Below are positions 41,198 to 64,000 of a stretch of 64,000 bases of DNA, one piece after another. A model generated the notes under the pieces. The model was not told the origin of the DNA. It did not search any database and was given only the letters and a program-made list of their open reading frames with translations. The stretch's first letter is position 1. Every line of letters begins with the position of its first letter. Made by a program: the position numbers and the translations under genes. Source of the stretch: Lachnospiraceae bacterium (GTDB lineage: Bacteria; Bacillota; Clostridia; Lachnospirales; Lachnospiraceae); contig JAEEIK010000143.1 of NCBI GenBank assembly GCA_016281335.1, positions 12,436 through 76,435 on the forward strand. The letters are read 5' to 3'.

Positions 41198-41220
41198 CTC
41201 ACATCCTTCCGCCGCTTTTG
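41182..41220 (+). terminator. Probable intrinsic terminator after flbD
   Basis: 9-bp stem ggaaggatg/catccttcc plus outer cggc/gccg, followed by cttttg. Confidence 0.5.
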
Positions 41221-41281
41221 TGCGTATTTGAGGGGAAGGCTGTTTACAATAAAGCTTTTATTGTAAAGGAAGATAAGCGTT

Positions 41282-42076: not shown

Positions 42077-42078
42077 AA

Positions 42079-42876: not shown

Positions 42877-42891
42877 GAGGAGAATAAACAG

Positions 42892-43413: not shown

Positions 43414-43450
43414 TCGTACTCAGAAGGAATAAGCGAGGTGATAGTTAAAG

Positions 43451-44476: not shown

Positions 44477-44479
44477 TAA

Positions 44480-45691: not shown

Positions 45692-46098
45692 TGATGGTTT
45701 ATAAGCTTTGGACATTGGCCGGGAATGTTTCCGGCAACAGTGCGCCTAAAGGAAGCAGCATAAGCGGAGTAAACAGCTTTGCCAGGTTTCTCACCCTCTT
45801 GGTGATATTTGTGATAGTCCTGGCAATAACATATTTTTCGACACGTTTTTTGGCAAAGAACCAGAGCGGGACAACACGCGCGGCCAATATGCATGTATGT
45901 GAGACACTGCAGCTGGCACCGGGGAGATACCTGCAGATAGTGAGGGTTGGAAAGAAATATTATCTGATCGGAACAGGTAAAGACAGTATTAATTTTATGA
46001 CCGAACTCGATGATGATATGGAGTTTTCGGAACGCGAACTTCCGGGCTTTTCGGATATACTTGAGAGATTTAAGAAGAAGAAAGAAGAGGATGGATGA
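45691..46098 (+). CDS. fliO: FliO/FliZ
   Basis: TM helix followed by ETLQLAPGRYLQIVRVG. Confidence 0.88.
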   Translation: MMVYKLWTLAGNVSGNSAPKGSSISGVNSFARFLTLLVIFVIVLAITYFSTRFLAKNQSGTTRAANMHVCETLQLAPGRYLQIVRVGKKYYLIGTGKDSINFMTELDDDMEFSERELPGFSDILERFKKKKEEDG

Positions 46099-46946: not shown

Positions 46947-46963
46947 AAAACGGGAGAAATCAT

Positions 46964-47233
46964 ATGAGTATTGATACCGTAACAGAGATAATATCCGGTG
47001 CGATGTACGTGGTGATAATCACGGTGGCTCCGCCATTGCTGATATCCCTGATCGTAGGACTCATAATCAGTATATTTCAGACAGTTACTTCCATACAGGA
47101 GCAGACGCTGACTTTTGTGCCGAAAGTACTGTCCATTTTTCTTGTGCTGATAGTTGCAGGAGGCTGGATGCTTAATAATATCATCACGTATATGGAAAAC
47201 CTGTGGGCTGATTTTTCGATATATATCAGGTGA
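46964..47233 (+). CDS. fliQ: Export gate protein FliQ
   Basis: FQTVTSIQEQTLTFVPK. Confidence 0.97.
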   Translation: MSIDTVTEIISGAMYVVIITVAPPLLISLIVGLIISIFQTVTSIQEQTLTFVPKVLSIFLVLIVAGGWMLNNIITYMENLWADFSIYIR

Positions 47234-47237
47234 GCAT

Positions 47238-48032
47238 ATGAATGTGGATTTTTCGGTGCCGCTTCAGGAACTTGAATATTATCTGCTGATACTTGTAAGG
47301 GTTGTGTCCTTTGTGGGTGTGGCTCCTTTTTTCAATACGAACAATACGCCCAGACCTATAAAGATCTGGTTCTCAGCTATAGTTGCCTTTCTTCTGTATG
47401 AGGTGATCACGCCGCATGTATACGCGGAGTATACGACGCTGCTCGGATATGCAGCCTGTGTACTGAAAGAAATGCTGACGGGGCTTCTGATAGGATTTAC
47501 GGCTAATGTAGCCACTATGGTCACGACCTTCGCCGGACAGCTTGTGGATAATAACATAGGCTTTTCCATGGCGGCGCAGATGGATCCGGTTACACAACAG
47601 AATACTACCGTGAGCGGATATATCTATCAATACGGTTTTATGCTGATATTTATAGTGTCCGGTATGTACAGATACCTGATAGAAGCTCTGGCAGATACCT
47701 TTAAGCTGATACCGGTAAACGGGGCGGTATTTAACATTGAGCTTATGTACGGCAGTTTTGTAGAAATGATAACCCAGTACGTTGTGCTTGGATTCAGGAT
47801 CGCCCTGCCTGTTTTTTCGGTGATACTGATATTGAACGGACTGCTGGGCGTTATGGCCAAGGTGTCACCGCAGATGAACATGTTTTCTGTTGGTATCCAG
47901 ATCAAAGCTTTTGTCGGTCTGACGGTGATGTGGGCGACGATAAGGCTGTTGCCTAAAGCAAACGAAATGATATATGAGCATATGCAGAGATCGATAGTAA
48001 CGATGATCAAAGCCATGGGAGGCGGAGTATAG
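47238..48032 (+). CDS. fliR: Export gate protein FliR
   Basis: LVRVVSF..APFF, AGQLVD..IGF, PQMNMF; start moved to ATG 47238. Confidence 0.95.
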   Translation: MNVDFSVPLQELEYYLLILVRVVSFVGVAPFFNTNNTPRPIKIWFSAIVAFLLYEVITPHVYAEYTTLLGYAACVLKEMLTGLLIGFTANVATMVTTFAGQLVDNNIGFSMAAQMDPVTQQNTTVSGYIYQYGFMLIFIVSGMYRYLIEALADTFKLIPVNGAVFNIELMYGSFVEMITQYVVLGFRIALPVFSVILILNGLLGVMAKVSPQMNMFSVGIQIKAFVGLTVMWATIRLLPKANEMIYEHMQRSIVTMIKAMGGGV

Positions 48033-49141
48033 TGCTTGAGCTTGATCTCCGGTTCTTCGCTAAAGAAGGCCCCGGAGGAGAAAAAACCGAAGAACCCACA
48101 AGCAAAAAGCTTGATGACGCCAGAAAGGAAGGGCAGGTTGCCAAGAGCAAGGAGTTTTCATCCAGCCTTACGCTTCTTACATTCTTTCTGTTGCTTCGTG
48201 TCTGGATGGGCGTACTCAGCGGTCAGATGAAGGAACTTTTCGGCGGCTTTTATGATCGTTTTCATTATTTTTCAAACATGGCTTCTTACGAAGACAGACA
48301 TGAAGAATATGCATCCCTTGTGGCCATTGCGCTATTAAGGGTATTTGTCATGATAGTGCCTTTCCTGATCGCCGGCTTTGTGGTCTGCTTTGTGGCTGAT
48401 CTGGTGCAGGTTAAATGGAAGCCCACATCCAAACCCTTAAAACCGAAGTTCAGCAAGCTGAATCCCGTTAATGGTTTTAAACGGCTTTTCTCACTTGAAA
48501 AGCTTATAGAACTCTTAAAATCCATTGTAAAGATTGCGATTGTAGTGATCGTGGTATATAATCAGCTTAAGGATAAATGGCCGCTGATTTTCAATATGTA
48601 TGATATGCCCCTGCTCCAGGGAGTGATAGTTGCGGGCAAGACTTTGGTTGATATAGGCTTTTTGATTTCGGTGATCTTCATGGTGGTGGCTTTTGCCGAT
48701 TTTGCTTTCCAGAAATGGAAATTCCATCAGGACATGAAGATGACGAAGCAGGAAGTTAAGGAAGAGTACAAGTCTACCGAAGGTGATCCGCAGATAAAAG
48801 GCAAGATCAAGCAGAAAATGATGGAAGCATCAAGGCGGCGTATGATGCAGAGCGTACCCCAGGCGGACGTGGTCATCACCAACCCGACCCATTATGCCGT
48901 GGCGCTTAAGTATGATAAAGAGATAGCGCCTGCGCCTTATGTGGTAGCAAAGGGTGTTGATTATATGGCACAGAAGATAAAAGAGATAGCAAGGGAAAGT
49001 GACGTGCAGATAAGCGAAAACAAACCCCTTGCGAGAGCGCTTTATTCCAATGTGGAAATAGGAGAGCAGATCCCCGAAGAACTGTATGTGGCTGTAGCCG
49101 AAGTGCTGGCTGCCGTATACAAGGCTACGGGAAGAGTATAG
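48032..49141 (+). CDS. flhB: Export switch protein FlhB
   Basis: EKTEEPT.KK, EGDPQIK, autocleavage site NPTH. Confidence 0.97.
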   Translation: MLELDLRFFAKEGPGGEKTEEPTSKKLDDARKEGQVAKSKEFSSSLTLLTFFLLLRVWMGVLSGQMKELFGGFYDRFHYFSNMASYEDRHEEYASLVAIALLRVFVMIVPFLIAGFVVCFVADLVQVKWKPTSKPLKPKFSKLNPVNGFKRLFSLEKLIELLKSIVKIAIVVIVVYNQLKDKWPLIFNMYDMPLLQGVIVAGKTLVDIGFLISVIFMVVAFADFAFQKWKFHQDMKMTKQEVKEEYKSTEGDPQIKGKIKQKMMEASRRRMMQSVPQADVVITNPTHYAVALKYDKEIAPAPYVVAKGVDYMAQKIKEIARESDVQISENKPLARALYSNVEIGEQIPEELYVAVAEVLAAVYKATGRV

Positions 49142-49164
49142 AAAACTGAAAGGAGGGGCATGAT

Positions 49165-51207
49165 ATGATCAAAAAGATCACGGGCGATGCTGTCGTAGGC
49201 ATCTATATACTTGCAGCCTTTGTCATGTTCATAGTTCCTATTCCGAGTTTTCTGCTGGACGTGCTGCTGGCGATCAACATGTCCGTTGCATTCTCTGTTC
49301 TGTTCTCGACCATGTTTTCCCTTGAAGTGCTGGATATGTCTTTCTATCCTACCATTTTGCTGTTTACCACGGTATTCCGTATCGCTCTGAACATTTCTTC
49401 GACCAGACTGATACTTTCTACCGGCGATCCCGGCGTAGTGGTCACGACCTTCGGACAGTTCGTGGGCGGCGGTGATCTGATAATGGGTGTCATCGTCTTT
49501 GCCATCCTGCTGATCGTGCAGTTCATGGTCATTAACAAAGGTTCCGAACGTGTGGCTGAAGTAACAGCCAGGTTCACCTTGGACGCTATGCCCGGTAAGC
49601 AGATGGCTATTGATGCCGACCTGAATACCGGAGCCATAGATGATGCCGAGGCGAAGAGGCGCAGGGATAAGATACAGGAAGAAGCAAGTTTCTTCGGTTC
49701 CATGGACGGTGCCGTGAAATACGTTAAAGGAGATGCGACAGCCGGTCTCATCATTACAGCTGTAAACCTTGTGGGCGGTATTGCCATGGGTATGACCAGG
49801 CGCGGTCAGAGTTTTTCGGATGCGCTTAATACCTACGGTGTGCTTACCATAGGTGATGGTCTGGTCAGCGCCATACCCTCGCTGTTGATATCTCTGTCAA
49901 CAGGTATATTGGTGACCAAGGGATCCAAGAGCGCCGATTTCGGAAATGCGCTTCTTTCGCAGCTGTTCACCCTTCCTAAGTCTTTATACTTTGTGGGGGC
50001 TACCTTGATAGCGCTTAGTTTCACCCCGCTGCCGTTCCTGATCTATTGTCCGCTGGGTATCATATTCATACTGGTGGGACGCAGGATGTCATCACAGATG
50101 AAGACTGCCGGCATCGAGCAGAAAGTGGAAGAGGAAGAGATTGCGGAGGCAGAGGAAATACGTCGTCCGGAGAATGTTACTTCGCTACTGCAGGTCGATC
50201 CTATAGAACTGGAATTCGGATATGGTATAATACCCTTGGCGGATGCGGCTCAGGGCGGTGACCTTCTGGACAGAGTTGTCATGATAAGAAGGCAGATAGC
50301 TCTGGAACTCGGTACCGTTGTGCCGATCATCAGATTGCGAGATAATATACAGCTGAATCCGAACCAGTACATCATAAAGATCAAGGGTATACAGACAAGT
50401 GTCGGAGAGATACTCTTCAATCACTATCTGGCAATGAACCCGGGTTATGTGGAAGAGGAGATAGCCGGAATACCGACGATAGAGCCGTCCTTTAAACTTC
50501 CTGCTCTGTGGATCACGGAGGGGCAGAGGGAAAGAGCTGAATCCGTAGGTTACACCGTAGTGGATCCTCCTTCGATAATCGCAACACATCTGACCGAAGT
50601 GATAAGACAGCATATAGCGGAATTGCTGACCAGACAGGATGTGCAGACTCTGGTGGATAATCTGAAAGAGAGCAATCCTTCCATAGTTGAGGAACTGGTT
50701 CCCAAGCTGCTGGGTCTGGGCGAGATACAGAAAGTATTGCAGAATCTGCTTTCGGAAGGCATATCCATAAGAGACCTGCTTACCATATTTGAATCACTTG
50801 CCGATCATGCTACGGTAACGAGAGATACTGATCTGCTTACTGAATATGTAAGACAGTCACTTAAGAGGGCTATTTCCAACAAGTACTTTGCCGGTGAATC
50901 TACGGTAAGCGTGGTCACTCTTGATCCTAAGCTGGAACAGGAGATCATGGGAAGCGTTAAGCAATCTGAGCAGGGAGCTTACATTACTCTTGATCCCGAG
51001 CGCATCAAGAGCATGATCGAAAGTGTAAGAAAAGAAACCGGAAAACTGACGGATATGGGAAAGAGCGCGATAGTGCTGACTTCGCCTATCGTTCGTATGT
51101 ATTTTAAACGGCTGACGGAGGATTATTTCTCCGATCTGGTCGTGGTATCATATAATGAAGTGGAGTCCGATGTGGAACTGCAGAGCGTCGGAATGGTGAG
51201 TGCGTAA
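49165..51207 (+). CDS. flhA: Export protein FlhA
   Basis: EVTARFTLDAMPGKQMAIDADL, MDGAVKYVKGD. Confidence 0.98.
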   Translation: MIKKITGDAVVGIYILAAFVMFIVPIPSFLLDVLLAINMSVAFSVLFSTMFSLEVLDMSFYPTILLFTTVFRIALNISSTRLILSTGDPGVVVTTFGQFVGGGDLIMGVIVFAILLIVQFMVINKGSERVAEVTARFTLDAMPGKQMAIDADLNTGAIDDAEAKRRRDKIQEEASFFGSMDGAVKYVKGDATAGLIITAVNLVGGIAMGMTRRGQSFSDALNTYGVLTIGDGLVSAIPSLLISLSTGILVTKGSKSADFGNALLSQLFTLPKSLYFVGATLIALSFTPLPFLIYCPLGIIFILVGRRMSSQMKTAGIEQKVEEEEIAEAEEIRRPENVTSLLQVDPIELEFGYGIIPLADAAQGGDLLDRVVMIRRQIALELGTVVPIIRLRDNIQLNPNQYIIKIKGIQTSVGEILFNHYLAMNPGYVEEEIAGIPTIEPSFKLPALWITEGQRERAESVGYTVVDPPSIIATHLTEVIRQHIAELLTRQDVQTLVDNLKESNPSIVEELVPKLLGLGEIQKVLQNLLSEGISIRDLLTIFESLADHATVTRDTDLLTEYVRQSLKRAISNKYFAGESTVSVVTLDPKLEQEIMGSVKQSEQGAYITLDPERIKSMIESVRKETGKLTDMGKSAIVLTSPIVRMYFKRLTEDYFSDLVVVSYNEVESDVELQSVGMVSA

Positions 51208-52455
51208 ATGGTTATCAAGAAATTTCAGGCAAAAACCGAAGCAGAGGCGATAGTTCTTGCAAAGAAGGAACTTGGAGATGACATTACCGTAATACATTCC
51301 AGGAATGTCAAGCCCAAGGGTTTCTTTTCGTTTTTTAAGAAGATGCTGGTGGAGATCACCGTTGCAAAAGACGAAGAAAATGTTAAGAGCGAGAAGGATA
51401 ATATCAAAGAAGGTGTGGCAGCCATCGATGCCGCAAGAGCGGCTGCAGAGGAAAAGGCAGCGACCGTAAAATCTGCAGCGCCGAAGCCGGAGAAAGCGAA
51501 AAACGAAGTTAATGCTTCAGCCGATGCGGAAAAGCGCGCAGTGGAAGCCAGACTCGACAATATACAGAATCTTCTGGAACAAAAACTTTCGGTACAGGAA
51601 AAAGAAAAGAAGGCCGAGCCCGAAAAGAATGTAAAGCAGGAAGCGGATGACTTAAAGACCAAAGAACTTATGGACTTTACGAAACTTCTGTATAACACGC
51701 TGATCGATAATGAGGTTGATGAGAAATTTGCCAACGAGCTGATAGGCGAAGTAGAGCAGAATTTCGGCAGCAATGTGAATGTTGAACATATACTTTCACA
51801 CATCTATCAGAAAGTGATACTGAAATTCGGTAAGCCCGAGACCATCGAGCCTGCAGAGCGGAATGCCAAGGCGGTGTTCTTCATAGGACCCACCGGTGTC
51901 GGAAAAACAACTACGCTGGCAAAACTGGCGAGCCGCTTCAAATTGACCGATAATAAACGTATAGCCTTGTTTACAACGGATACCTACAGGATATCCGCAA
52001 CGGACCAGTTAAAGACCTATGCGAATATCATGGGAGTGCCTTTCCACGTGATATATACGCCGGAGGAACTGGTGGAAGAGTATGAGAGGTATAAGGATTA
52101 TGACTATATCCTTATAGATACCGCAGGACATTCGCCGCATAATACCGAGCAGAAAGAGGATATGGAGAAGTTCATCCATGTGCTCGAAGGTGTGGCCCAG
52201 ACCGAGAATTATCTGGTGCTCAGCGCTACCACGAAGTATAAAGATCTGCTGAAGATCTGTGACGTATACAGAGAGATGACGGGATACAGGCTTATCTTTA
52301 CCAAGCTTGATGAGACCGAATGCCACGGTAACCTCTTAAACGTGCGCATGCATACCATGGCACCCATGAGCTATGTAACCAACGGACAGAACGTACCTGA
52401 CGATATAGAAGTTTTCAATCCGCAGAATGCCGTAAAGCGTCTGCTGGGAGGGTGA
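51208..52455 (+). CDS. flhF: SRP-family GTPase FlhF
   Basis: GPTGVGKTTTLAKLA, DTYRI, DTAG, TKLDET. Confidence 0.96.
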   Translation: MVIKKFQAKTEAEAIVLAKKELGDDITVIHSRNVKPKGFFSFFKKMLVEITVAKDEENVKSEKDNIKEGVAAIDAARAAAEEKAATVKSAAPKPEKAKNEVNASADAEKRAVEARLDNIQNLLEQKLSVQEKEKKAEPEKNVKQEADDLKTKELMDFTKLLYNTLIDNEVDEKFANELIGEVEQNFGSNVNVEHILSHIYQKVILKFGKPETIEPAERNAKAVFFIGPTGVGKTTTLAKLASRFKLTDNKRIALFTTDTYRISATDQLKTYANIMGVPFHVIYTPEELVEEYERYKDYDYILIDTAGHSPHNTEQKEDMEKFIHVLEGVAQTENYLVLSATTKYKDLLKICDVYREMTGYRLIFTKLDETECHGNLLNVRMHTMAPMSYVTNGQNVPDDIEVFNPQNAVKRLLGG

Positions 52456-52459
52456 GTAA

Positions 52460-53344
52460 TTGGATCAGGCTGAACAGTTAAGAAACCGCATAAAGACCGG
52501 TGGTAAGACTTCCAGACCGCTGGCCCGTGTTATGACAGTGACCTCAGGCAAAGGCGGCGTGGGTAAGTCAAACACGGCCATTAATCTTGCCCTGCATTTC
52601 AAGAAACTGGGCAAGCGCGTGATAATACTGGATGCGGATTTCGGGCTTGCCAATATCGAGATAATGTTCGGCACAGTTCCGAAGCATAATCTGTCCGACC
52701 TTATATACCAGGGTAAATCCATCACCGAGATCATCACCTGGGGGCCGGGAGATGTGGGCTTCATCTCAGGAGGTTCGGGTATTGCAGGCCTTTCCAATCT
52801 CGGACGTGAATATCTCACTTATATAATTCAGAATCTTGCACAGCTGGATGCCATAGCCGATGTGATCATCATTGATACCGGAGCAGGCATAGCCGATGCG
52901 GTACTGGAGTTCCTGGTGGCAAGCGGAGAGATATTGCTGATCACTACGCCGGAACCCACATCGATCACTGATTCCTATTCACTCTTAAAAGCGCTTAACA
53001 GACATCCGAGATTTTCGAGAGAAAACTCACAGATCAAGGTGATCGCCAACAGAGTAGAGAATCCCGAAGAAGGCAGGAGCCTGTATAATAAGCTGAACGC
53101 GGTGGTAGGACGTTTTCTCGGCTTACCGCTGGAATATATGGGGGCCGTGCCTCAGGATAAATATCTGGCCCAGGCGGTAATGCAGCAGAAGCCGGTTTCC
53201 CTTGAGCATCCGAATGCAAAGAGCGCCATGGCTTATCAGGAGATAGCCATGAAACTCATGAACATGGAAACCGAAGGAAAGATAAAGAAAAGGGGGATGG
53301 CCGCATTTTTCTCGCACATCGTGGCCAATAAGAAGACAGTATGA
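52460..53344 (+). CDS. flhG: MinD-like ATPase FlhG
   Basis: MDQAEQLR, SGKGGVGKS, DADFGLAN, DTGAG, PEPTSITD; TTG start. Confidence 0.95.
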   Translation: MDQAEQLRNRIKTGGKTSRPLARVMTVTSGKGGVGKSNTAINLALHFKKLGKRVIILDADFGLANIEIMFGTVPKHNLSDLIYQGKSITEIITWGPGDVGFISGGSGIAGLSNLGREYLTYIIQNLAQLDAIADVIIIDTGAGIADAVLEFLVASGEILLITTPEPTSITDSYSLLKALNRHPRFSRENSQIKVIANRVENPEEGRSLYNKLNAVVGRFLGLPLEYMGAVPQDKYLAQAVMQQKPVSLEHPNAKSAMAYQEIAMKLMNMETEGKIKKRGMAAFFSHIVANKKTV

Positions 53345-54075
53345 TCGATATAGAAGATGTGGTAAGGCCCGGCGACCGCTGTGATTTCGAGACCATACCT
53401 GACAAATTCGCAAAAGATATAGAGGGTGAGAAGAAGTACTACATCACCAAGGTATACGATGTTAATGATGACGGCACCGTTTCTCTTGTGATGCCTCTTG
53501 ACAAGACCAAACTCGTAGTACTTTCCGAAGGAGAGGAGTATGATCTGTATTTTTATGCAGGAAAAGGCATCTACGCATGTCGCGGCAGGGTAGTCGGCCG
53601 CCTCAAAGACGATAACAATATCCCGGTTGCCGTTGTGGAAACGCTGACGGAGCTTAAGAAACACCAGAGACGTGAATACTACCGCTATACCTGCGTGGTC
53701 GGCATGACCACGAGACAGCTTCCGGACTGGGAAGAGAAAGATTTCATGGAACATAACAGGCTGGATGTTCTCGCCGAATGCAAGGAAAAGAGCGTCATAG
53801 TCGATATCAGCGGCGGAGGAGTGCGTTTCGTGTCTGCCGAGGATTACGAACCCGGAAAGCTGGTCAACTGCATCTTTGTACTCCAGACCAAGGGCATCAA
53901 CAAGACGCATAATCTGGTAATGCGTATCCTTTCCGTGACTCCGGTTCCCAACAATGCAGGTAACAAGGAATACCGTGGACAGTTCATCTATATCGAGAAC
54001 GGCGAACGCGAAGAGATCATCAGCTTCATCTTTGAAGAGGAACGCCGCATACGTGCCAAGATGAACGGATATTGA
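53341..54075 (+). CDS. PilZ-domain flagellar brake protein (YcgR/MotI-like)
   Basis: QRREYYR and DISGGG c-di-GMP-binding motifs. Confidence 0.92.
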   Translation: MIDIEDVVRPGDRCDFETIPDKFAKDIEGEKKYYITKVYDVNDDGTVSLVMPLDKTKLVVLSEGEEYDLYFYAGKGIYACRGRVVGRLKDDNNIPVAVVETLTELKKHQRREYYRYTCVVGMTTRQLPDWEEKDFMEHNRLDVLAECKEKSVIVDISGGGVRFVSAEDYEPGKLVNCIFVLQTKGINKTHNLVMRILSVTPVPNNAGNKEYRGQFIYIENGEREEIISFIFEEERRIRAKMNGY

Positions 54076-54205: not shown

Positions 54206-57200
54206 ATGAAGAAGAGACTGAGCAGGGGAATAGCATTCCTGATGATGATCATCATGATGCTGTCAAACGTCAATCTGCCGGTGTATGCGTCCGGGACCGA
54301 TACAGAAACCGAAACGGAAGCTGTATTGGAAGATGATACTGTGGCAGCTGACGAGGAAGAGGCGGCAGTGGAAGAGACCGTAGTTGATGATGAAAATGTT
54401 TTCGAGGAGAAACAGGGAGCTGCGGCTCCAAAAGTATACTTAAGCGGCGGTATATTCGGAGATCGTTTGGTAAAAGGGGTAACTGAACTGAATGAAGGCG
54501 AGACAGTAAAGAATGTCGCCGGGACTGACGATTATGCATCTTACAATGAAGGTGTATTGGTCCTGGATAGTGTACTGCTTCACTCCAATATTAATGAAAT
54601 GACAGCATATTCCTTTGGAAAATCCGGGGAAAAGCATGCATGCATATATGCGGAGGGTGATCTGACGATAGAGCTGGATGAAGAGCTGCTTATATATCTG
54701 GATGAGAAACAGGAGGCTCTTCCTGAATACAGTTACGGTATTTACGTTACCGGTAATCTCACTATTATAAATAAATATGCTGCAAGCGGTTTATCAATAG
54801 GACAAAAAGGCGGTATTTCTGCTACTAAAGAGTCTGCTGCGATATATTGCGGAGGAAGACTTTTGCTCCAAGACCTCGCTCATTATGATGATGTGGATAT
54901 TGTTCTGTCGGGAGGCAGCGTCAGTTCCTCAGAGATAAATAAAAAAACAGCGGTTAACGGATACGGTATATATGCAGATGGCGGAATAACCGTCGAAGGT
55001 ATTGATTTACAGATAGACCAAAGCAAAAATGTATATGCAAAAAAAGGTCTTGCAAGCAATCACGCTATCTATACCGGCAGCGGTATGTCTATTGTCAATC
55101 CGGGTAAAGTAGAGATAGATAAAGTATATGCAGAATCTGAAGATACGGCAGAAGCATACGGGATAAGCGGAGCAGGTTCACTGAGCGGAACAATAACCTA
55201 TGCGAACGAAGCTCTTGAAACAAATACCGGAGCAGCAAAGAAGGTCAAATCGGAAAAGAGCTTTATTGAGAACGGTTTCACTTCGGTTATGTTTGAAAAA
55301 TCCATGGGCGACGGCAGAGTATTCCATGGCGGAGAGCATCCGCTGCGTATTGGTAAAGGTGAAACAAGCGGATTTGAGTATTCATGGAAAGACAAGAAAG
55401 ACTTTACAAACAGTATTGTTTTTGTTGCGTATAAGGTAGATGATTTCACTCCCGAGGCTATACTGGATGCCAGAAGTAAAGGACCGGATACCACGGTGCT
55501 CGGGTTCGATAAAAATATCGGTCAGGTTGGTCCTTATGATATGGACACAGGACTGAAAATATCGGGACTGGATACGGGAAAAGCTTTTCTTGCGGCTTAC
55601 AATATCAAGGATTTAAATGACTATCTGAATAATGACGGAATTACCGGAGAGCAGCTGTATGCAAAGAATATCCTGACTTCCAGGGTATTTGTGGAAGTCA
55701 GCGAAGAAGGAGTGAATGACGAGAAAGATCCCGGAGAAGTTGAAGAAGTGGAGTTTTGGCGCCCCGGCCCTGATGTTTGGTATGATGCGGAAGACCCGTG
55801 CCAGATGATAAAGGGAAAGACATCATCAGAGTATTTATATTATTTCCCTAATAATTCGGAAAAAGAAGATGTGATCTTCCTGGCATATGAGGTGGAAGAT
55901 TTTGAGACGGCTACCATAGTTGCAGCTATGGCTGAGGGGCCGACGGAGGATTTCTTTGATTTTCAAAAAACGGTAGATCCGAATGGGCCGGGTGGAGAAT
56001 GTGATAATCTGATCATGACACCGCTAAAGACCGGAAAGGCAATAGTATGTGCATTCCGCATCAGCAGCTATCAGGCATATAAAGAAGGCGCGATAAACGC
56101 TTCCGAACTTGCGGGAAGAAATCTGCTCATATCCAAGATGTATGTGGAGGTTACAGAAGGAAGACAGTTTACGCTTCATATGAACGGCGGACGTTTTCTG
56201 AATAAGGAAGATATCGATCTTTTTAACGCGATAGTCAATGATTATAATTATGTTAATGTTTCATGGCAGGAGATGGTCTACGACCGCGGATCTGAAAGCA
56301 TAACTTTGGTGACCGATCCGGATTGCAGCTGGAATACTTTAAACTATTATGTTACGGAAGCTTGCGAAAGATCAGGATGGGCTTTCCGCTATGGTCAGGT
56401 ATACCGGAGTAATGAATATCAACTCTCTTATCTTACACATGATGGGGCAATAAGCGATAGTGATAAGAATTCGCTGCCAACCCTTTATCTGTCAGTGCCT
56501 GAGGATATTAAAGATATATACCTTGCATGGAGACCCGCCGATAATAAAGAGATATATTTTGATGCAGATGGCGGTAGTATTAATATGCCTGAAGGGATGG
56601 TTTTGATGCCGCCTTCCGGAAAATACACCGCGCCCGGGTATTCTAAACTGATACTTCCTGAAGCACATAAGGAGGGGTATGTTTTTGAAGGCTGGTTTGT
56701 AGAGCATGCCGCTGCCGATAGTGATTATGAATATAGTATTTTTGGCGGAGGAGACTTTTTTGTAGAGAATGGCATGCATTTTATTGCCAGATACAGAGAA
56801 ATCAGGGAAGAACTGACAATAAGTACTGCTTTTAAACCTGCAGAGATGGTACACGCGGGAGATTCGGTCAATGACATAGGAAATATTGCGTGGGAAAGCG
56901 GAGCTGCTGTAACGCCCAATGATATAGGGATGATTGAGCTTCAGGCAATTTTGACTGCCGTGGATGCAGATTACACCAACAAAATCGGCAGAGTATATAA
57001 TGCAGCGTATAACGGAGATTATTTTGAGAATGATTCCGTTTACTATGTTTTATACAAGGTGAGTTTGAGTAGTGGATATATACTGGATCCCACATCATCC
57101 GTTGTTAAGATCAATAATTCCGTCGTTCCGTGGATCGGAAGATGGGAAGAACAGGGACATGGCTTGAGTTACATAGTGTATGCCTTCAATCCCTTTACCC

Positions 57201-60094
57201 TTGGAACAGTACCTGAGTATGAGTTGAGCTTTGACCTGGGCGGAAAAGGGGCGCTGCCGGAAGGCATAGAAAGCAAGTATAGCTTTAAGTACGGTCAGAC
57301 CATAGCTTCACTGTTGTCGGAAGACGAAATAGATAAGCTGGATAAGCTTACTTATACAGATACTTCGGACGGTAAAACATATAAGGCTGTCTGGTATGCA
57401 GGGACCGTTATGGATGATGAAGACAGGCTTGACAGCATTGCAGGATATCCCTTAAATAAAGCGACAGGAAATGTTACGCTGCATGCAGCCTGGGTTTTGG
57501 ATAAACGACTGGATAGTTCCGTGATCAGCATTAAGAGACCCCTTCCCGATACTACCGTAAACAATAATCTGTATAACTATCTGGAAGGCAGTAATGCGGA
57601 TGTAAGCTGGTCGCTTGAAAAACAGGATCCTTACGGATACGCGATATATACCGATGAGAAAATGGATTCAAAGCATCGGGTTGAATATGGCAGTAAGTTA
57701 GAAGCAAATGTCACATATTATGCAAAGATGGATATCGCTGTGAATCCGGCGTCAGGATATCATATAGATCCGGAGCATCTTCCGACCTTCGTTGTGAACG
57801 ATGAGCCGGTGCAGGTATCCGAAACAGCTTATTACAATATCCTTGGTGAAAAGATAAGCATATACTGCTTTGTGTATAAGTTTACCCCTGTAAAGAAAGA
57901 ATACAGCGTCACACTTGATATGAACCGTCCTGACGGGAAGGAAGAATCTTATACCATAAGCGGTATCCCCGGCGGTACTTATATTGAAGGAGCCCTTAAT
58001 ATGGGACTTGCGCTTCTTCTGGAAAAGAAAGACCTTAGCTTCAATGATTATCAAAAACTGAATCAGGAGTATGCAAACAAGGCGAAGTTTTGGAGTGATC
58101 ATCCGTTTGTAAGTGAGGAATGTGGCGGCTTCAGCTCCAGAACCAAAGTGGGGATGAAAGCGTCATACCACGATGCGGATGAATACTATCAGGATAGCAT
58201 TGTATTACGAAATTATACTGTGGATACGGATCTGACACTCTATCTTATGTGGGAGAAAAAGATCGAAAGCATTGTGGTTCAAAAACTTCCCGTACCTAAA
58301 TGCGGATATAAAACACAGATTGTAGCCGATAAGCAGCAGAATACTCCGGCTATCGGAGAGGCAGATGGTTATAAGATATTTGTCGGAAGCGGTTTCAGTA
58401 CAGCTTGCTGCTGGGTAAATTCCACAGATCACACAAAATGGATAAATGACGGCAACGAAACGGAATTCGAGGAAGGAACGGAATATACCCTTAAGCTGAG
58501 CATAAATATTAACGGAAGCGATGCAACCTTTGGCAGCTATATCTGCAAGGATACAAAACTGATATGTTTCGGGAAGGAGTATACCGGCACTGAAGAGGAT
58601 GAGAAACTGGTATTCTATATCCCTGTTAAAGCGGAACACTTATGTGATGATGCCAACGGGCTCAAAGAGGAAGACAGGGTAGAGCCTGACTGCGAGAATG
58701 ACGGATCATATACACTTGTGAGAAAGTTCACCTGTGCCGGATGCGGCCAGCAGGTCGATGACAGGGTCGAGAATATCGTGATCCCCAGGCTTGGTCATAA
58801 ATGGGGAGAATGGGTCAAGACTAAAGTTTCCACCGAGTCCGAAGAAGGAGTGGAGCAGAGAGTCTGCAAAAATGATCCATCCCATGTGGAGACACGGGCT
58901 ATCCCGATAAAGGTTCATGTGCATAAGCTTACCTTTGTTCCCGCAAAGGAGGCTACGGAAACGGAAGACGGAAATATAGCATATTATGTATGCGATGTCT
59001 GTGGAAAGTTCTATTCCGATGCAGCAGGTAAGAATATGATAACAGCAGATAGTGTAGTAATACCTGCAAAGAATAAGACTAATGAAAATCCCGAAGATCC
59101 CGAGGCACCGGAAGCAAACGCGGTTACTCTCAGCGAGAACAAAGTCGAGTTAAAGATCGGCGAAAGCAAGAAACTGCTTGCGATCATTGAACCTGATGAC
59201 GCAAAGGAGACAACGCTTAGCTGGATCAGCAGCAACGATAAAATAGTTACGGTCGATAAGGACGGCAATATAAAAGGCGTTTGGTTTGGAAACGCAAAGG
59301 TGACGGTGACTACGGCTAACGGCAAGAGCGCAGTCTGCGATGTTACGGTACTCAAGGCCTTTGATACAGACAATGAAGAGAATGTAAAGATATCGCCCGA
59401 AGATATGGACAGCTATGTGGTGCCTGAGAAGCAGGAGCATAAGCCGGCCACACCCAAGCCTGTAAGTGCAAAGCTTAAAGACGGGACTGAAGTAAAGGTA
59501 AGCGTATCCGTAAACTATATGAACGCCGTAACTTACACGGGTAAAGCCATAGATCCGGTGAAGGATCTCGGCGTCGAATTCGAACTTCAGGATATACTTG
59601 ATAAGGCAGGGGTTTCCAAAGTAGCGCAAAATGAAATCTTCAAAGTCAGCTACAAGAGCAAGAACAATAAGAAGGCAGGAAAGGATACCGCAAGCTTCTA
59701 TGCAAAGATTTCTCTTGTGAAGAATGCAAAGAAGAAGTTCAAGCTGACCAAGGATCAGGAGAAGAACCTGAAAGCCATCCTTAAAGCAGAGAACAAGGAA
59801 CTTAAGAATAGCAAGATAAGCTACACCATCAACAAAGCGTCAATGCTTGATCTTTCGGAAGTAAAGCTTCATACGAAGATACAGAAGGACGGAAGCCTGA
59901 AGCTTACTGCTAAGGAGACTATTAAGGGCTTTAAGAACATTAAGGTCAAATTTAAGGCAGATGATAAAAAGGCTCAGAAGATCAGCGCAAAGACAGGATA
60001 CAGTTATAAGGTGACTGATGCCGCGAAGTGCAGGGTAAAGATCACGGGTAATACCAACTTTACCGGCAGTATTACGGTAACGGCCGAAAAATGA
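54206..60094 (+). CDS. Large secreted/cell-surface repeat protein (InlB B-repeat-like, Cys/His motifs, Big_2 Ig-like, basic C-terminal domain)
   Basis: Signal peptide MKKRLSRG..PVYA; FDADGG..KEGYVFEGWF repeat; CxxCG motifs; Big_2-like LSWISSNDKIVTVDKDG..G.A.VTVTT; Lys-rich tail. Confidence 0.85.
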   Translation: MKKRLSRGIAFLMMIIMMLSNVNLPVYASGTDTETETEAVLEDDTVAADEEEAAVEETVVDDENVFEEKQGAAAPKVYLSGGIFGDRLVKGVTELNEGETVKNVAGTDDYASYNEGVLVLDSVLLHSNINEMTAYSFGKSGEKHACIYAEGDLTIELDEELLIYLDEKQEALPEYSYGIYVTGNLTIINKYAASGLSIGQKGGISATKESAAIYCGGRLLLQDLAHYDDVDIVLSGGSVSSSEINKKTAVNGYGIYADGGITVEGIDLQIDQSKNVYAKKGLASNHAIYTGSGMSIVNPGKVEIDKVYAESEDTAEAYGISGAGSLSGTITYANEALETNTGAAKKVKSEKSFIENGFTSVMFEKSMGDGRVFHGGEHPLRIGKGETSGFEYSWKDKKDFTNSIVFVAYKVDDFTPEAILDARSKGPDTTVLGFDKNIGQVGPYDMDTGLKISGLDTGKAFLAAYNIKDLNDYLNNDGITGEQLYAKNILTSRVFVEVSEEGVNDEKDPGEVEEVEFWRPGPDVWYDAEDPCQMIKGKTSSEYLYYFPNNSEKEDVIFLAYEVEDFETATIVAAMAEGPTEDFFDFQKTVDPNGPGGECDNLIMTPLKTGKAIVCAFRISSYQAYKEGAINASELAGRNLLISKMYVEVTEGRQFTLHMNGGRFLNKEDIDLFNAIVNDYNYVNVSWQEMVYDRGSESITLVTDPDCSWNTLNYYVTEACERSGWAFRYGQVYRSNEYQLSYLTHDGAISDSDKNSLPTLYLSVPEDIKDIYLAWRPADNKEIYFDADGGSINMPEGMVLMPPSGKYTAPGYSKLILPEAHKEGYVFEGWFVEHAAADSDYEYSIFGGGDFFVENGMHFIARYREIREELTISTAFKPAEMVHAGDSVNDIGNIAWESGAAVTPNDIGMIELQAILTAVDADYTNKIGRVYNAAYNGDYFENDSVYYVLYKVSLSSGYILDPTSSVVKINNSVVPWIGRWEEQGHGLSYIVYAFNPFTLGTVPEYELSFDLGGKGALPEGIESKYSFKYGQTIASLLSEDEIDKLDKLTYTDTSDGKTYKAVWYAGTVMDDEDRLDSIAGYPLNKATGNVTLHAAWVLDKRLDSSVISIKRPLPDTTVNNNLYNYLEGSNADVSWSLEKQDPYGYAIYTDEKMDSKHRVEYGSKLEANVTYYAKMDIAVNPASGYHIDPEHLPTFVVNDEPVQVSETAYYNILGEKISIYCFVYKFTPVKKEYSVTLDMNRPDGKEESYTISGIPGGTYIEGALNMGLALLLEKKDLSFNDYQKLNQEYANKAKFWSDHPFVSEECGGFSSRTKVGMKASYHDADEYYQDSIVLRNYTVDTDLTLYLMWEKKIESIVVQKLPVPKCGYKTQIVADKQQNTPAIGEADGYKIFVGSGFSTACCWVNSTDHTKWINDGNETEFEEGTEYTLKLSININGSDATFGSYICKDTKLICFGKEYTGTEEDEKLVFYIPVKAEHLCDDANGLKEEDRVEPDCENDGSYTLVRKFTCAGCGQQVDDRVENIVIPRLGHKWGEWVKTKVSTESEEGVEQRVCKNDPSHVETRAIPIKVHVHKLTFVPAKEATETEDGNIAYYVCDVCGKFYSDAAGKNMITADSVVIPAKNKTNENPEDPEAPEANAVTLSENKVELKIGESKKLLAIIEPDDAKETTLSWISSNDKIVTVDKDGNIKGVWFGNAKVTVTTANGKSAVCDVTVLKAFDTDNEENVKISPEDMDSYVVPEKQEHKPATPKPVSAKLKDGTEVKVSVSVNYMNAVTYTGKAIDPVKDLGVEFELQDILDKAGVSKVAQNEIFKVSYKSKNNKKAGKDTASFYAKISLVKNAKKKFKLTKDQEKNLKAILKAENKELKNSKISYTINKASMLDLSEVKLHTKIQKDGSLKLTAKETIKGFKNIKVKFKADDKKAQKISAKTGYSYKVTDAAKCRVKITGNTNFTGSITVTAEK

Positions 60095-60109
60095 TCTGAA
60101 GAGGAAGAT

Positions 60110-60544
60110 ATGGATCTGAGTATTCAGGTAAAACAGTTAGGGAAGAAGGGGAGGCATATAATGCCTCTGCTTCTTCATTATAACAAATGTCCGGAAACGG
60201 TGAGAGAGCTGATCGAAGAGACAGTAAAGCTAATGGTATCGGGTTTTGTCGAAAAGCTAAAAGCCGTGAAGGAAGGAAAGCTGCCGGAGAGTCTGTCGGA
60301 AGAAAAGATCACAGCCATGGCAGAAATAGGAAAGATTGCTTTCGGAGATATCTGGAACGAAAAAGAACCGGATGAAGAGAAAGCGATAGCTATTGCTTTG
60401 CAGGCTTATGCTGACGGGATTGTACGTGTGTTTGTGAACGGGCAGGAAGCGGAGTATACGGAGGCAGACGCAAAGCTTGAATTAAAAGACAAAGATGAGA
60501 TCACTTTTGTACGTCTGGCAATGCTGGCGGGAAGGATGTTTTAG
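60110..60544 (+). CDS. Hypothetical protein with a beta-grasp (ThiS/MoaD-like) C-terminal signature
   Basis: Good RBS (gaggaag); C-terminus VRVFVNG..LELKDKDEITFVRLAMLAGRMF. Confidence 0.7.
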   Translation: MDLSIQVKQLGKKGRHIMPLLLHYNKCPETVRELIEETVKLMVSGFVEKLKAVKEGKLPESLSEEKITAMAEIGKIAFGDIWNEKEPDEEKAIAIALQAYADGIVRVFVNGQEAEYTEADAKLELKDKDEITFVRLAMLAGRMF

Positions 60545-60571
60545 GTAGATCAAAATGTAAAGGGGGTATGT

Positions 60572-63500
60572 ATGGACGAGCAGGAACGAAGCAGGGTCAT
60601 TACGGAGATCGACAGGGAATTCAAAGCCGCAGATGAAGCACTGGTAAAGTCGCTGGATCCGGATATCAGGGATTATATTCATTATTGTGATGATTACAAG
60701 AATTATTACAAAGCATATCCTGATCTGGATATGAGCAAGAATCAGTTCCGGACAGGACTGATCAGTCATCTGAAGGACAAGAAAAGTCCGTCCGGATATT
60801 TCCAAAAACATATCAGTAAATTCAAGGATTTTATTTCAAAGGAATTAATTCCGTATTTTTATAAAAGCATAGACAGTATACCGCTGTGGCAGTCTGACTA
60901 TAACAGTTATGCCAGAAGATCCTATCGCAGCAGGAGTAACCTTCTTCGAGGACTTGACAGGATAGGAGAGATACTGCTGGATTACCGGAAAATCAGCAAT
61001 TACAAGCTTGATGCTTACTCGCTGATCACTTATGAAGCCGCGGATGAACGTATGCGCGCTTATCTGGACAGAGAGTACCGCGCCTTTGAGGGAATGTACT
61101 ATATTGCGGCAAAGCTGGATGAAGGCGATGCAAAGCTCGAGGATATACTGGAAGGCATCTTTTACCGTGATGAGGGCAGGATGAGGACGGAATACATCCG
61201 TGCCATCATGATGAGCCATAACGAAAAGATGTATGAGCTGCTGGGTAAGACTTTGATCGCAGCCAGGCTTTCCGAGGGACTCAGACAAGCCATATGTGAG
61301 AATATGGATTACGGAACCGAAGAAGCTTTCCGTTATATGTTAAATATCGTAACAGAGAACGATCTGATCCGCTTCTCTTCCGTAAAGCGCGCATTTTATG
61401 TATTTACCGGCCTGGGTTATGCGGATGTTAAGGATATGGACAGGATCAGCGCTAAGCATCTGGAACTGATACGTCAGGCTCTGTCCGATAAGGCAAAGAC
61501 AGAAGAAATGCTTAAGACTGAGGACAGCATGCAGATCTATCTGGGACTCTGGGCTATAGGACTTTACGATATAGATCCCGCCCTGGAGAGAGCAGAGAAA
61601 CTGTGCAATGAAGGAAGCAGTCATCAGAGACTTACGGCCTGTTTTTTCCTGGCATATACGAATGTACCCTATGCGGATAAAAACGTGCTCGTAAACCGCA
61701 TGCTGAAAGAATACAGGGATGATAAAGAGATACTTGCGCTGCTGATGCATATCTTTATGCGCGGTTACCGCGACAGAATAAGAAAGGCAATATTTGAGGG
61801 GCAGGTCTCACGTTACAGACAAAATGAGGAGTATAAAAAGAGAGGCTTTGTTCCTTGGAATGATTTCTTTACAAGCGAAGAGGAGTGCAGGGAGTATCAT
61901 GAGCTTCTTATGGAACTCTATGAGGAAGTGCCGAAAAAGGGCCTTGAGTTCAATCCCTGCGTTTTCCCCTGGAATACGGAGTCACTAAACCGCTCTGCAA
62001 TAGTAAGCAGGATAGTATACTGCGCCAGTGCCTTAAGGGATAAAAAGCTTATGGCTGATGCTGCCGCAATGCTTAAGGATATATCAGTTGCCGGTTATGG
62101 CAGTGACAGAGAGAACTCCATGGAACTGCTGCTTAGAGAACCGGATACCCCGGAACTGCTGGATGCGCTGACTGAATCAATTGCCGATGCGGAGACCTAT
62201 ACGAGAAATGCCGCCTATCAGCTGTTAAAACAGGAACTGGATTCAGACAGGAGCATGTTAAGTCCGGAGATAGCTGCGCTTGCGGGAAGGCTACCGGAGA
62301 GATGTTATGAGCGGCTGGAAGCGATGCTCCGCCTTAAGAAAGAGGATCTTCGCAATAATGTCATAAGCTTCTTAAAGACCAGAGAAGCCGAAGCAATGTT
62401 TGAGATGCTTAAGCGACTTTTATCCGACAGTAAAGAAGAGAAGGTGACAGCGGCGCTGGATATCATGCTGTATCTTCGGGACAGTAAAGATCCGCTGTTT
62501 GAGCAGGCTAAAGAATTGCTGCCGCTTGTTAAGGATCCGACTTCCAAAGAGAAGGTACTTATCAATGAGATAAGCGGGACTGCAGCAGAGGCAAGGACGG
62601 AAGCAAAAGATTTTTATGACGAAAAAGCGGAATATGAGCCGGTGATCGACGAAGCGTATCTTGCGGAGTGCGCCGAAGCATATATGCAGGTATTTCCGGA
62701 AGCTAAAGTGGGAGACGTACTGCCTCAGGCACCCAAAGGATTGAAGGCTGCTGCCGCCAAAATAAAAAAAGCCGTGGCGGGAAATGCCACGGAAAAGCAG
62801 GATGTGGAGGTGCTTAACAAACTGGACGAGCTCATTGAGGCAAATAAGGATCGGGAATATAACAATTACAACGGACCGGTTCTATTAAGAAACGTGCTTG
62901 GCAACGAGTGGACAGACGGAAAGATAGGAGAACTGGCATTTAAAGAACTGTGGGAGGATTTTTATGAGAAAAATATGACTCCCGAACAGGCGATACGTAT
63001 AGACCTGAGGTATTCTTCTTATTATCTGTATAAGTCTACGATCACGGGACTGGCGGAACATTTTCAGCCTTTTATTTCCAATGTACTTGGGGGAGCTGAT
63101 CCTAAATACCGCGGACTGAAGCTAAGATATCCGGAACATATCCGTAAGATACTGTCTCATTGTGCCGGAAAAGCGTATAAAGCTAAGAGTGAGCTCAGAC
63201 CGAAGATCGCAGCCTGCTTTGCTTATTATGTCTGTAACTGTAAGGACAGTCTGGTATATGAATATAAGGCGGATAAGGAAACACAGGACTGGACCAGAAG
63301 AAATATGGACAAGGATAAGCTGTATTCGAAAGCATTTACCGAGCTGCCTTTTACAAGCAGCCTATTGGTCGGGCTTTCCAAGGATGTGAGAAATTTCCCG
63401 ATCATGTACGAATTCAGTGAGAAAGTATATAAAAAGATCCTGGGCCTGCAGACCGGCGAACCCGCATACTATGCAAGGGATAAGAGGCTTTTCTATACAC

Positions 63501-64000
63501 CGCTGCTGGGAGATTATATCGGAGCTGTAGTGGCAGGATATATTTCAAAAGATTTTATGTATAAAAAGATACTGGATGGGGCGCTGCTGGATGATACCCT
63601 TGATAAGATATCCTCGCTGATCTGCTGTGTGCGTGAGGCAGACCGCAGCATCTCTACGAGACAGCGATACTCAAATACCGCATACAAGCAGCGTTCTGCG
63701 CTTGAGAACTTATTTAAGAAGAAATATGACGAGATCGATTTGAACACGCTCTCTGAGACAGACAGAAAAAAGCTTGAACTTGCGGGGGAATGTTATGAAA
63801 ATATCACACCGCTTGTTCTTGATCGTGAACTGGTACGCGGGGATAGCGAAACAGAGTATTCAAAAGCATTATGTTCAATGAAAAGGATATATGGCCTGAA
63901 GTATTTTGTGAGGATATTGCTGGCACTGGGAAATGATACGCTGGACAGGTCCGTATATTACTATTATTACAGTTACGGAAACAGGGTGATATCAAAAAAA
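60572..64000 (+). CDS. Giant DUF4132/DUF5724-like protein, 3' end outside window (not in the ORF track)
   Basis: ATG 60572 behind aagggggt. Frame checked open at 60.6-61.4, 61.8, 62.3, 62.8, 63.3 and 63.8 kb and to base 64000. Motifs AARLSEGLRQAICE, DLIRFSSVKRA, PCVFPW, ELVRGDSETEYS, recalled from this family. Confidence 0.8.
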   Translation, partial: MDEQERSRVITEIDREFKAADEALVKSLDPDIRDYIHYCDDYKNYYKAYPDLDMSKNQFRTGLISHLKDKKSPSGYFQKHISKFKDFISKELIPYFYKSIDSIPLWQSDYNSYARRSYRSRSNLLRGLDRIGEILLDYRKISNYKLDAYSLITYEAADERMRAYLDREYRAFEGMYYIAAKLDEGDAKLEDILEGIFYRDEGRMRTEYIRAIMMSHNEKMYELLGKTLIAARLSEGLRQAICENMDYGTEEAFRYMLNIVTENDLIRFSSVKRAFYVFTGLGYADVKDMDRISAKHLELIRQALSDKAKTEEMLKTEDSMQIYLGLWAIGLYDIDPALERAEKLCNEGSSHQRLTACFFLAYTNVPYADKNVLVNRMLKEYRDDKEILALLMHIFMRGYRDRIRKAIFEGQVSRYRQNEEYKKRGFVPWNDFFTSEEECREYHELLMELYEEVPKKGLEFNPCVFPWNTESLNRSAIVSRIVYCASALRDKKLMADAAAMLKDISVAGYGSDRENSMELLLREPDTPELLDALTESIADAETYTRNAAYQLLKQELDSDRSMLSPEIAALAGRLPERCYERLEAMLRLKKEDLRNNVISFLKTREAEAMFEMLKRLLSDSKEEKVTAALDIMLYLRDSKDPLFEQAKELLPLVKDPTSKEKVLINEISGTAAEARTEAKDFYDEKAEYEPVIDEAYLAECAEAYMQVFPEAKVGDVLPQAPKGLKAAAAKIKKAVAGNATEKQDVEVLNKLDELIEANKDREYNNYNGPVLLRNVLGNEWTDGKIGELAFKELWEDFYEKNMTPEQAIRIDLRYSSYYLYKSTITGLAEHFQPFISNVLGGADPKYRGLKLRYPEHIRKILSHCAGKAYKAKSELRPKIAACFAYYVCNCKDSLVYEYKADKETQDWTRRNMDKDKLYSKAFTELPFTSSLLVGLSKDVRNFPIMYEFSEKVYKKILGLQTGEPAYYARDKRLFYTPLLGDYIGAVVAGYISKDFMYKKILDGALLDDTLDKISSLICCVREADRSISTRQRYSNTAYKQRSALENLFKKKYDEIDLNTLSETDRKKLELAGECYENITPLVLDRELVRGDSETEYSKALCSMKRIYGLKYFVRILLALGNDTLDRSVYYYYYSYGNRVISKK

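Follow-up and report, generated by a model that had tools for sequence, protein, structure and literature searches.

The closest described relative of the gene pair reported here is the drA0165-drA0166 operon of Deinococcus radiodurans, a DdrO/IrrE target that is strongly de-repressed on DdrO depletion and has a radiation/desiccation response motif (RDRM) at -83; the DRA0166 protein is increased after mitomycin C in an IrrE-dependent manner (PMC8533742). The product of the first gene was studied as an 83-amino-acid (aa) 'sORF peptide', SEP068184, which is induced by gamma rays and H2O2, binds Trx1 in pull-downs and was predicted independently to have a MoaD/MOCS2A/SAMP1-like structure; deletion of the gene raised survival in H2O2, complementation lowered it, and DR_A0165 was believed by the authors to be confined to Deinococcus (PMC9650054). 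The pair described in this work was found at the end of a 64,000-nucleotide (nt) stretch of DNA from a Lachnospiraceae bacterium (the window; G000:C15:12436-76435, where G000 is the source genome, 93% complete). It consists of a small gene, coding for a 144-aa protein, and a giant gene, coding for a protein of 1,774 aa, and is evidently the Bacillota/Bacteroidota form of the Deinococcus operon, with a capped C-terminal tail on the small protein.

Other systems with which the pair was compared are as follows. MoaD inserts its tail into MoaE; UFM1 and Atg8 are made as precursors whose C-terminal extensions are cut off by dedicated Cys proteases, and both depend on E1 for activation; the Bil-type and CBASS (cyclic oligonucleotide-based antiphage signalling system) Cap2/Cap3-type operons serve ubiquitin-like conjugation in bacteria and include E1, E2 and JAB genes.

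Both genes were confirmed as open reading frames (ORFs) at the positions given in Table 1, in agreement with the original prediction of a small ORF carrying VRVFVNG-x13 just ahead of a long ORF that had been missed. The C-terminus of the small protein reads ...GIVRVFVNG-QEAEYTEADAKLE-LKDKDEITFVRLAMLAGRMF, with 13 residues between VRVFVNG and LKDKDEITFVRLAMLAGRMF. The giant ORF was followed beyond the window on the contig (G000:C15:73007-78331) and is uninterrupted; Pfam domains: DUF5724, residues 57-1375 (E 1e-259, 865 bits; curated cut-off 25 bits), DUF4132, 1415-1582 (E 1e-38, 133 bits; cut-off 27 bits), and DUF7737, 1672-1773 (E 3e-35, 121 bits; cut-off 27 bits). The in-window part matched DUF5724 with E 4.7e-144. 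All three domains are above cut-off and in order in one uninterrupted protein of the drA0166-like size class (1,600-1,800 aa), and DUF4132 and DUF7737 are joined by a conserved linker. The assignment of the long ORF to DUF4132/DUF5724, for which a hidden Markov model check had been proposed, was borne out and DUF7737 was added to it; the ORF proved neither broken nor unrelated to DUF4132.

The two genes occur together. DUF5724 was detected in 8 of the 201 genomes of the order and the small-protein profile, made from the family alignment, in exactly those 8 (identical presence/absence sets by chance, p ~1.7e-14), the small gene lying immediately upstream of the giant gene on the same strand in 8/8. 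The pair is present in 8/41 genomes of the genus; four same-genus carriers other than the source genome and G213 (see below) have it in unrelated contexts (giant identity 80-87%). Relatives of the giant were collected by scanning species-representative genomes with its conserved C-terminal 400 aa; at least 509 were obtained and the best 80 loci were analysed (Lachnospiraceae, Oscillospiraceae, Ruminococcus, Filifactor, Selenomonas, Parabacteroides, Leptotrichia, Fusobacterium). The small gene was directly upstream of the giant in 60 of the 63 loci with enough upstream DNA (Bacillota, Bacteroidota, Fusobacteriota), the gap being usually 1-35 nt. All-against-all clustering of every ORF from 89 loci showed recurrence of the giant (89 loci) and of the small protein (69 loci) alone; the remaining large clusters were antisense shadow ORFs within the giant gene. 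The pairwise distances of the two proteins are correlated (Mantel r 0.84; 0/1,000 permutations as high). Members of the family occur in Bacillota, Bacteroidota, Fusobacteriota and Deinococcota, and more remote relatives in Actinomycetota and Proteobacteria. On these comparisons the genes are evidently a self-contained, obligate pair that is inherited and transferred together, and a translationally coupled two-gene unit; the one-to-one coupling, the translational coupling and the co-divergence make a direct partnership of the two proteins hard to avoid. The co-occurrence anticipated in the original prediction was therefore found, and its description of a coupled, biochemically uncharacterised unit agrees with presence/absence, adjacency and co-divergence alike.

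Irregular loci were recorded among the relatives. In a metagenome-assembled genome of Parabacteroides sp. (L071:1956-2447) an in-frame TAA replaces the codon for the conserved Gln in the ALQ(A/S)FEDG helix of the small protein (AL*SFEDG), and the longest giant piece is only 579 aa; both genes may have decayed jointly, or the assembly may be in error. Giant ORFs of 1,372-1,459 aa without the N-terminal part, separated from the small gene by a gap of 890-1,330 nt, were found in L018, L023 and L053; a frameshift, a split gene or an assembly error may be the cause, and in L053 some of the gap is occupied by a separate ORF of 258 aa. One Clostridiales lineage (L003:10443-10778 and L012, reverse complement 812-1300) has an extra ORF of ~111 aa, a predicted membrane protein, between the two genes. 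The Fulvitalea axinellae plasmid pFA1 (L114:1-1113 and 1488-7176) carries two small + DUF4132 pairs head to head, which suggests that the unit was duplicated as a whole, giving paralogs. In Nonomuraea gerenzanensis an 801-aa ORF ending ...ILRQIKGGG contains a region distantly related to the C-terminal module (26% identity; L115; 11.85-Mb record, 'plasmid I'); this record is almost unannotated and is clearly a chromosome, yet it is listed as a plasmid in PLSDB.

The small protein has 99 close homologs and 528 representative clusters at E <= 1e-3, nearly all of 135-150 aa. Conserved elements: GK(I/V)xFG loop (residues 74-79), AxxxAxxAxxDG helix (92-103) and C-terminal F-V-R-L-A-M-L-A-G-R-M-F; invariant positions: Gly74 (in GK(I/V)xFG), Gly103 (in AFEDG) and Gly141. 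An AlphaFold2 (AF2) model of moderate quality was obtained (predicted local distance difference test, pLDDT, 68.9; predicted template modelling score, pTM, 0.68), in which beta1 and beta2 are followed by a long helix, a pair of inserted helices and then beta3 to beta5; this is, as modelled, the order of elements of a beta-grasp interrupted by ~50 inserted residues. The top Foldseek matches in the PDB were all beta-grasp proteins (ubiquitin, SUMO, NEDD8, SAMP1, a MoaD homolog, EAP domains) with a target-normalised template modelling (TM) score of ~0.5, none of them significant (E >= 0.19). Against Pfam ThiS (PF02597) residues 95-134 gave a sub-threshold match (14.4 bits vs the 22.5-bit cut-off, E 0.057); when 133 members were scanned singly, ThiS was the only recurrent Pfam match (11/133, sub-threshold, best E 1.4e-4), and hhalign of the family vs a genuine ThiS alignment gave a probability of 57% (E 1e-4) over beta3-beta5. 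No match was found for the protein in NCBIfam or for the family profile among the PDB sequences. The protein is thus probably a beta-grasp with a helical insert. Of the ThiS/MoaD pattern that had been proposed for it, the weak, recurrent ThiS signal and the beta-grasp-compatible AF2 and Foldseek results remain; a significant fold match and a score above the Pfam cut-off do not. The small protein of one genome of the same family (G041) carries ~25 extra residues ahead of beta5, and its C-terminus is ...LTMLSGW.

Compared with MoaD-MoaE and ThiS, the pair is alike in the weak beta3-beta5 similarity, in the beta-grasp-compatible model and in the placing of a small gene beside a dedicated larger partner. 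It differs in that the small protein falls below the Pfam cut-off, has a single Gly and three more residues in place of Gly-Gly and contains the helical insert, that a ThiF/MoeB partner is missing and that the giant is unrelated to MoaE or ThiG.

The tail is the most regular part of the small protein. An invariant Gly is found near the C-terminus in 133/133 aligned members; among the nearest 143 representative clusters it is followed by exactly three residues in 138, of which the first is Arg in 110/138 and the last aromatic in 133/138 (Trp 116, Phe 15, Tyr 2). Longer members are extended at the N-terminus and no domain ever follows the tail, so that the C-terminus is always free; a search for natural fusions joining the small domain with a large protein gave one candidate (P0138), which was a repetitive false positive. 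Other endings are Gly-Ser-Ile-Trp or Gly-Ser-Thr-Tyr in Cytophagales, exactly Gly or Gly-Trp in one clade that includes a genome of the family of the window, and Gly-Gly (LAGG) in 98/99 members of the Deinococcus subfamily; the window protein ends Gly-Arg-Met-Phe. The Arg codon of the tail varies across 52 loci (AGG 23, AGA 19, CGN 10), and the tail is therefore conserved at the level of protein. AGG dominates where the stop codon and the giant ATG are 1-5 nt apart, which indicates that in the tightest loci the tail codons double as Shine-Dalgarno sequence; conservation of the tail as a by-product of a downstream Shine-Dalgarno sequence was rejected, because the loci with AGA or CGN (29/52) have a separate AGGAGG further downstream. 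From its conservation the free tail is evidently under functional constraint. The single Gly and short tail noted in the original prediction are present (Gly, then Arg-Met-Phe), but the tail does not look disposable, as had been suggested, its three-residue length and aromatic end being ~97% conserved.

The Deinococcus counterpart was reached through the giant. In tblastn of the C-terminal module vs plasmid records, the 412-kb replicon of D. radiodurans gave a match of 38% identity (C-terminal 400 aa); there, just after trxC, a hypothetical gene of 134 aa ends 2 nt before a DUF4132 gene of 1,626 aa. hhalign of the family profile vs the 134-aa protein gave a probability of 99.8% (E 3e-28, 131 aligned columns, full length), the homology covering the GKxxFG loop, the AFEDG helix and the RLTxLxG end. 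Gly141 was aligned with the first Gly of the Deinococcus ...LAGG, and Arg occupies the position of the terminal Gly. By homology this D. radiodurans pair is drA0165-drA0166: the two pairs agree in gene order and spacing, their small proteins are full-length homologs, and both giants have DUF5724, DUF4132 and DUF7737. The two forms differ in the exposed Gly-Gly of Deinococcus (...LAGG) vs the capped end here (...LAGRMF), in a Cys of the Deinococcus giants that is Asn1725 in the window giant, and in the DdrO/RDRM regulation, which is a feature of the Deinococcus pair.

The current RefSeq entry for DR_A0165 (L096:3853-4257) has 134 aa, vs 83 aa in older annotation and in PMC9650054 (compare P0325); the 83-aa form loses the N-terminal half of the beta-grasp. 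As to the RDRM, the same study found no such motif upstream of DR_A0165. DR_A0166 did not appear in the portion of its co-immunoprecipitation lists that was covered. The distribution restricted to Deinococcus that was reported there is wrong, homologs having been found here across several phyla. No paper connecting the small protein to the giant or recognising the wide distribution of the pair was found in the literature searched. The module had been called undescribed in the original prediction; this holds for its biochemistry, which is uncharacterised, but not for drA0165-drA0166 of Deinococcus, for which expression and knockout data exist (PMC8533742, PMC9650054).

The C-terminal module of the giant is a catalytic-looking structural orphan, as far as sequence conservation suggests. 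Across all three tail classes 134 columns are invariant, 102 of them in the last 574 residues of the giant; among the best 80 loci the last 400 residues are >50% identical across phyla and hold ~70 invariant positions, many of them Asp, Glu, His, Ser, Thr and Arg (motifs: QPFKQxFRE, ADWFSPxDIExPT, SExMRDxD, AHxGxxDxExSxST, HLGSG, RGxxFLPFxDxDP). The large number of invariant Asp, Glu, His, Ser and Arg residues in the module suggests catalysis. A confident AF2 model of the last 400 aa was obtained (pLDDT 87.3, pTM 0.80), for which Foldseek gave no significant match in the PDB (best E 0.24) or BFVD (best E 0.012, TM 0.13). The PDB sequences contained no match to the module profile or to the full giant, relaxed Pfam scans of the module from 60 members returned no recurrent family besides the two DUFs, and no nucleotide-binding, E1, E2, JAB or peptidase match was seen by Pfam, PDB sequence or fold. 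Giants of the capped type have no conserved Cys in the module; the single Cys column specific to the Deinococcus giants, which aligns with Asn1725 in DUF7737, comes from three sequences of one clade and may reflect phylogeny alone. The short-tail variants form one clade, and the class-switch columns are not concentrated in any domain of the giant.

E. coli YehI/MolR shares DUF4132 with the giant. The kinship with YehI that had been proposed is limited to this one domain, E. coli having neither DUF5724 nor DUF7737, and the MoxR, vWA and SWIM genes of the yehI-yehLMPQ neighbourhood are not found near the window pair or its relatives.

The reading favoured here, whose chances are put at about even, is that the small protein serves the giant as a dedicated subunit, bound non-covalently with its tail docked into the larger protein, and is not a conjugated tag. 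It is favoured because the cap is fixed in length and chemistry, activating and deconjugating enzymes are absent, and the capped giants have no conserved Cys; that the domain is never fused at its C-terminus also supports a bound subunit over a tag. In such a complex, the ThiS/MoaD-like beta-grasp would dock through its insert loop and free tail (Gly-Arg-Met-aromatic) into the DUF4132-linker-DUF7737 part, in parallel with the insertion of the MoaD tail into MoaE, and the long helical DUF5724 region would serve as a scaffold or substrate-binding surface. The complex would be cytoplasmic and, by analogy with Deinococcus, would act in the response to DNA damage or oxidative stress; a role of this kind in the window organism is likely.

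Several points weigh against the bound-subunit reading. The physical complex and the docking are what we infer from the sequences, and between tail class and giant residues no covariation beyond phylogeny was seen. The catalysis suggested by the invariant residues of the module would be unexplained by a pure scaffold, and members that end at Gly, Gly-Gly or Gly-Trp are what is expected of a ubiquitin-like protein used through its Gly carboxylate. Support for the fold of the small protein is moderate on all measures given above (pLDDT, Foldseek E value, ThiS score). The link to stress is drawn by analogy from Deinococcus only: LexA boxes (<=1 mismatch) were present upstream of 69 small genes in 8 loci vs 4.7 +/- 2.2 in controls, and in Firmicutes loci they are not enriched. 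The window contains no LexA (Cheo) box GAAC-N4-GTTC either, and SOS control of these loci, which was considered, is unsupported.

The main alternative, considered unlikely, is that the small protein works as a modifier of the ubiquitin-like kind, or as a sulfur carrier, without a classical E1: the cap would be cleaved after the invariant Gly, and the Gly carboxylate would be activated or transferred by DUF4132-DUF7737 of the giant. The invariance of the Gly, the clade ending at Gly or Gly-Trp, the Gly-Gly ends of Deinococcus and the always free C-terminus are in accord with this, as are the ThiS-like sequence signal, the active-site-like Asp, Glu, His, Ser and Arg of the module and the Cys of the Gly-Gly class at Asn1725; but the cap is far more conserved than typical propeptides of ubiquitin-like proteins, the module is without a nucleotide-binding, E1, E2 or peptidase match, the capped giants have no conserved Cys and Arg stands in place of the terminal Gly of Deinococcus. 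Further, no DR_A0165 conjugates were reported, and C- and N-terminally tagged forms pulled down similar sets of proteins (PMC9650054).

The machinery of known ubiquitin-like systems was looked for at three levels. No E1, E2 or JAB gene was found at the window locus, none is recurrent in the 89 loci, and the whole source genome has no ThiS/MoaD family gene (E <= 1e-6) and no Prok-JAB. Its single ThiF-family gene lies on another contig (L121:1534-2214) and best matches the tRNA-modifying TcdA. As there is no ThiS/MoaD gene and only a TcdA-like ThiF, the gene content suggests that the organism lacks ThiS-dependent thiazole synthesis and molybdenum cofactor synthesis. UFM1 and Atg8 precursors resemble the small protein in having one conserved Gly and then a short C-terminal extension; unlike theirs, the extension here is strongly conserved, and neither such a protease nor an E1 is encoded at the window pair. 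With the Bil-type and CBASS operons the pair has in common a small beta-grasp protein and a functionally important C-terminal Gly region, but the window locus and its relatives are without their E1, E2 and JAB genes and are not in a defence context. An unrecognised ubiquitin-like pathway free of E1, E2 and JAB, in which DUF4132-DUF7737 trims the Arg-Met-aromatic cap and activates or transfers the small protein, is regarded as quite unlikely; if it did exist, the subfamilies ending in Gly-Gly, in Gly alone or in a cap would represent a single mechanism, in mature and precursor versions, that is present in at least five phyla and induced by DNA damage in Deinococcus.

There is little chance that the small protein negatively regulates or inhibits mainly other proteins, for example thioredoxin, and is adjacent to the giant for co-regulation only. 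The increased H2O2 resistance of the D. radiodurans deletion strain, the binding of Trx1 in pull-downs (PMC9650054) and the position of trxC just upstream in D. radiodurans speak for such a role; against it, trxC is not recurrent elsewhere (89 loci), and the strict one-to-one coupling, the translational coupling and the co-divergence tie the small protein to the giant.

The smallest chance of all is given to an anti-phage or conflict system, in which a ubiquitin-like adaptor would control a giant sensor or effector: the pair is accessory and patchily distributed (8/201 in the order, 8/41 in the genus), contexts vary and include large secondary replicons, and >50% identity across phyla suggests horizontal transfer, but neither protein matches PADLOC (E <= 1), the site lies between a flagellar operon and pyrH-frr-uppS-cdsA, no defence genes recur in the 89 loci, conservation is very high, unlike that of fast-evolving defence genes, and the Deinococcus pair belongs to a DNA-damage regulon (PMC8533742).

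The positions of the features are collected in Table 1. Each of the two genes has its own Shine-Dalgarno sequence.

Table 1. Features of the gene pair and its spacers in the window (positions in nt).
Feature	Position	Strand	Basis or remark
Spacer after the stop codon of the surface-protein gene, 15 nt	60095..60109	+	holds the Shine-Dalgarno sequence of the small gene, GAGGAAG; no terminator-like site predicted
Small gene, 144 aa, drA0165-like protein	60110..60544	+	ORF; homolog searches; AF2 model; hhalign
Tail codons GGA AGG ATG TTT: invariant Gly141 and the three-residue cap Arg-Met-Phe at the free C-terminus	60530..60541	+	
Spacer between small gene and giant gene, 27 nt	60545..60571	+	holds the Shine-Dalgarno sequence of the giant gene, AAGGGGG
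Giant gene, first 1,143 codons (DUF5724 region)	60572..64000	+	open at window end

The pair is preceded by a surface-protein gene (54206-60094; 1,962 aa, signal peptide, Big_2 domain, Cys-rich repeats), and 5' of this lies a flagellar export/switch operon (39191-54075: flgE-like, fliM, fliY/CheC-FliN, fliP, fliR, flhB, flhA, flhF, flhG and a PilZ/YcgR-like gene). On the 3' side of the giant a polysaccharide deacetylase gene, bactofilin, pyrH, frr, uppS and cdsA were found. The closest same-genus genome in which the pair occupies this chromosomal position, G213 (locus L119), reads flhA-flhF-flhG-PilZ-small-giant-deacetylase-bactofilin-pyrH-frr; it has no surface-protein gene at this point, and the small gene starts 19 nt after PilZ (L119:9034-10216). 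Since in G213 the small gene directly follows PilZ, the surface-protein gene is taken to be a separate, lineage-specific insertion outside the two-gene unit; since the pair in that genome lies directly at the 3' end of the flagellar operon, read-through from this operon is possible. A terminator scan of the + strand predicted no terminator-like site from the surface-protein stop (60094) to the small gene, as had been stated in the original prediction. Within the small ORF a terminator-like hairpin with an 8-bp stem (GGAGGCAT/ATGCCTCT) was recorded at 60150-60168 (codons 14-20); it is probably due to chance, because the region has 5 such sites vs 2.2 +/- 1.7 expected.

Taken as a whole, the proposed coupling of a ubiquitin/MoaD-like protein with a giant of the DUF4132 type largely stands, and the parts that concerned the neighbourhood have to be given up: the link to the upstream surface-protein gene fails with its absence at the same site in G213; no MoxR, vWA, SWIM, JAB or E1 gene was found downstream of the giant beyond 64 kb, and none recurs in 89 related loci; and a defence role finds neither a PADLOC match nor fitting flanks, which are flagellar and housekeeping.

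The pair belongs to a widespread family (>500 small-protein clusters; >500 giant relatives in species-level genomes) in which a ubiquitin/MoaD-like protein goes with a giant carrying an orphan module. New here is that the small protein is a widespread protein of 135-145 aa locked to the giant and not a genus-specific peptide of 83 aa; the window pair adds a capped-tail member to a module studied only in Deinococcus. Cultured carriers are Eubacterium ruminantium ATCC 17233, Parabacteroides gordonii, Bacteroides thetaiotaomicron and D. radiodurans. Biochemistry of the pair could reveal a beta-grasp used as a plug-in subunit, or ubiquitin-like chemistry independent of E1, and its solution would explain a member of a DNA-damage/oxidative-stress regulon.

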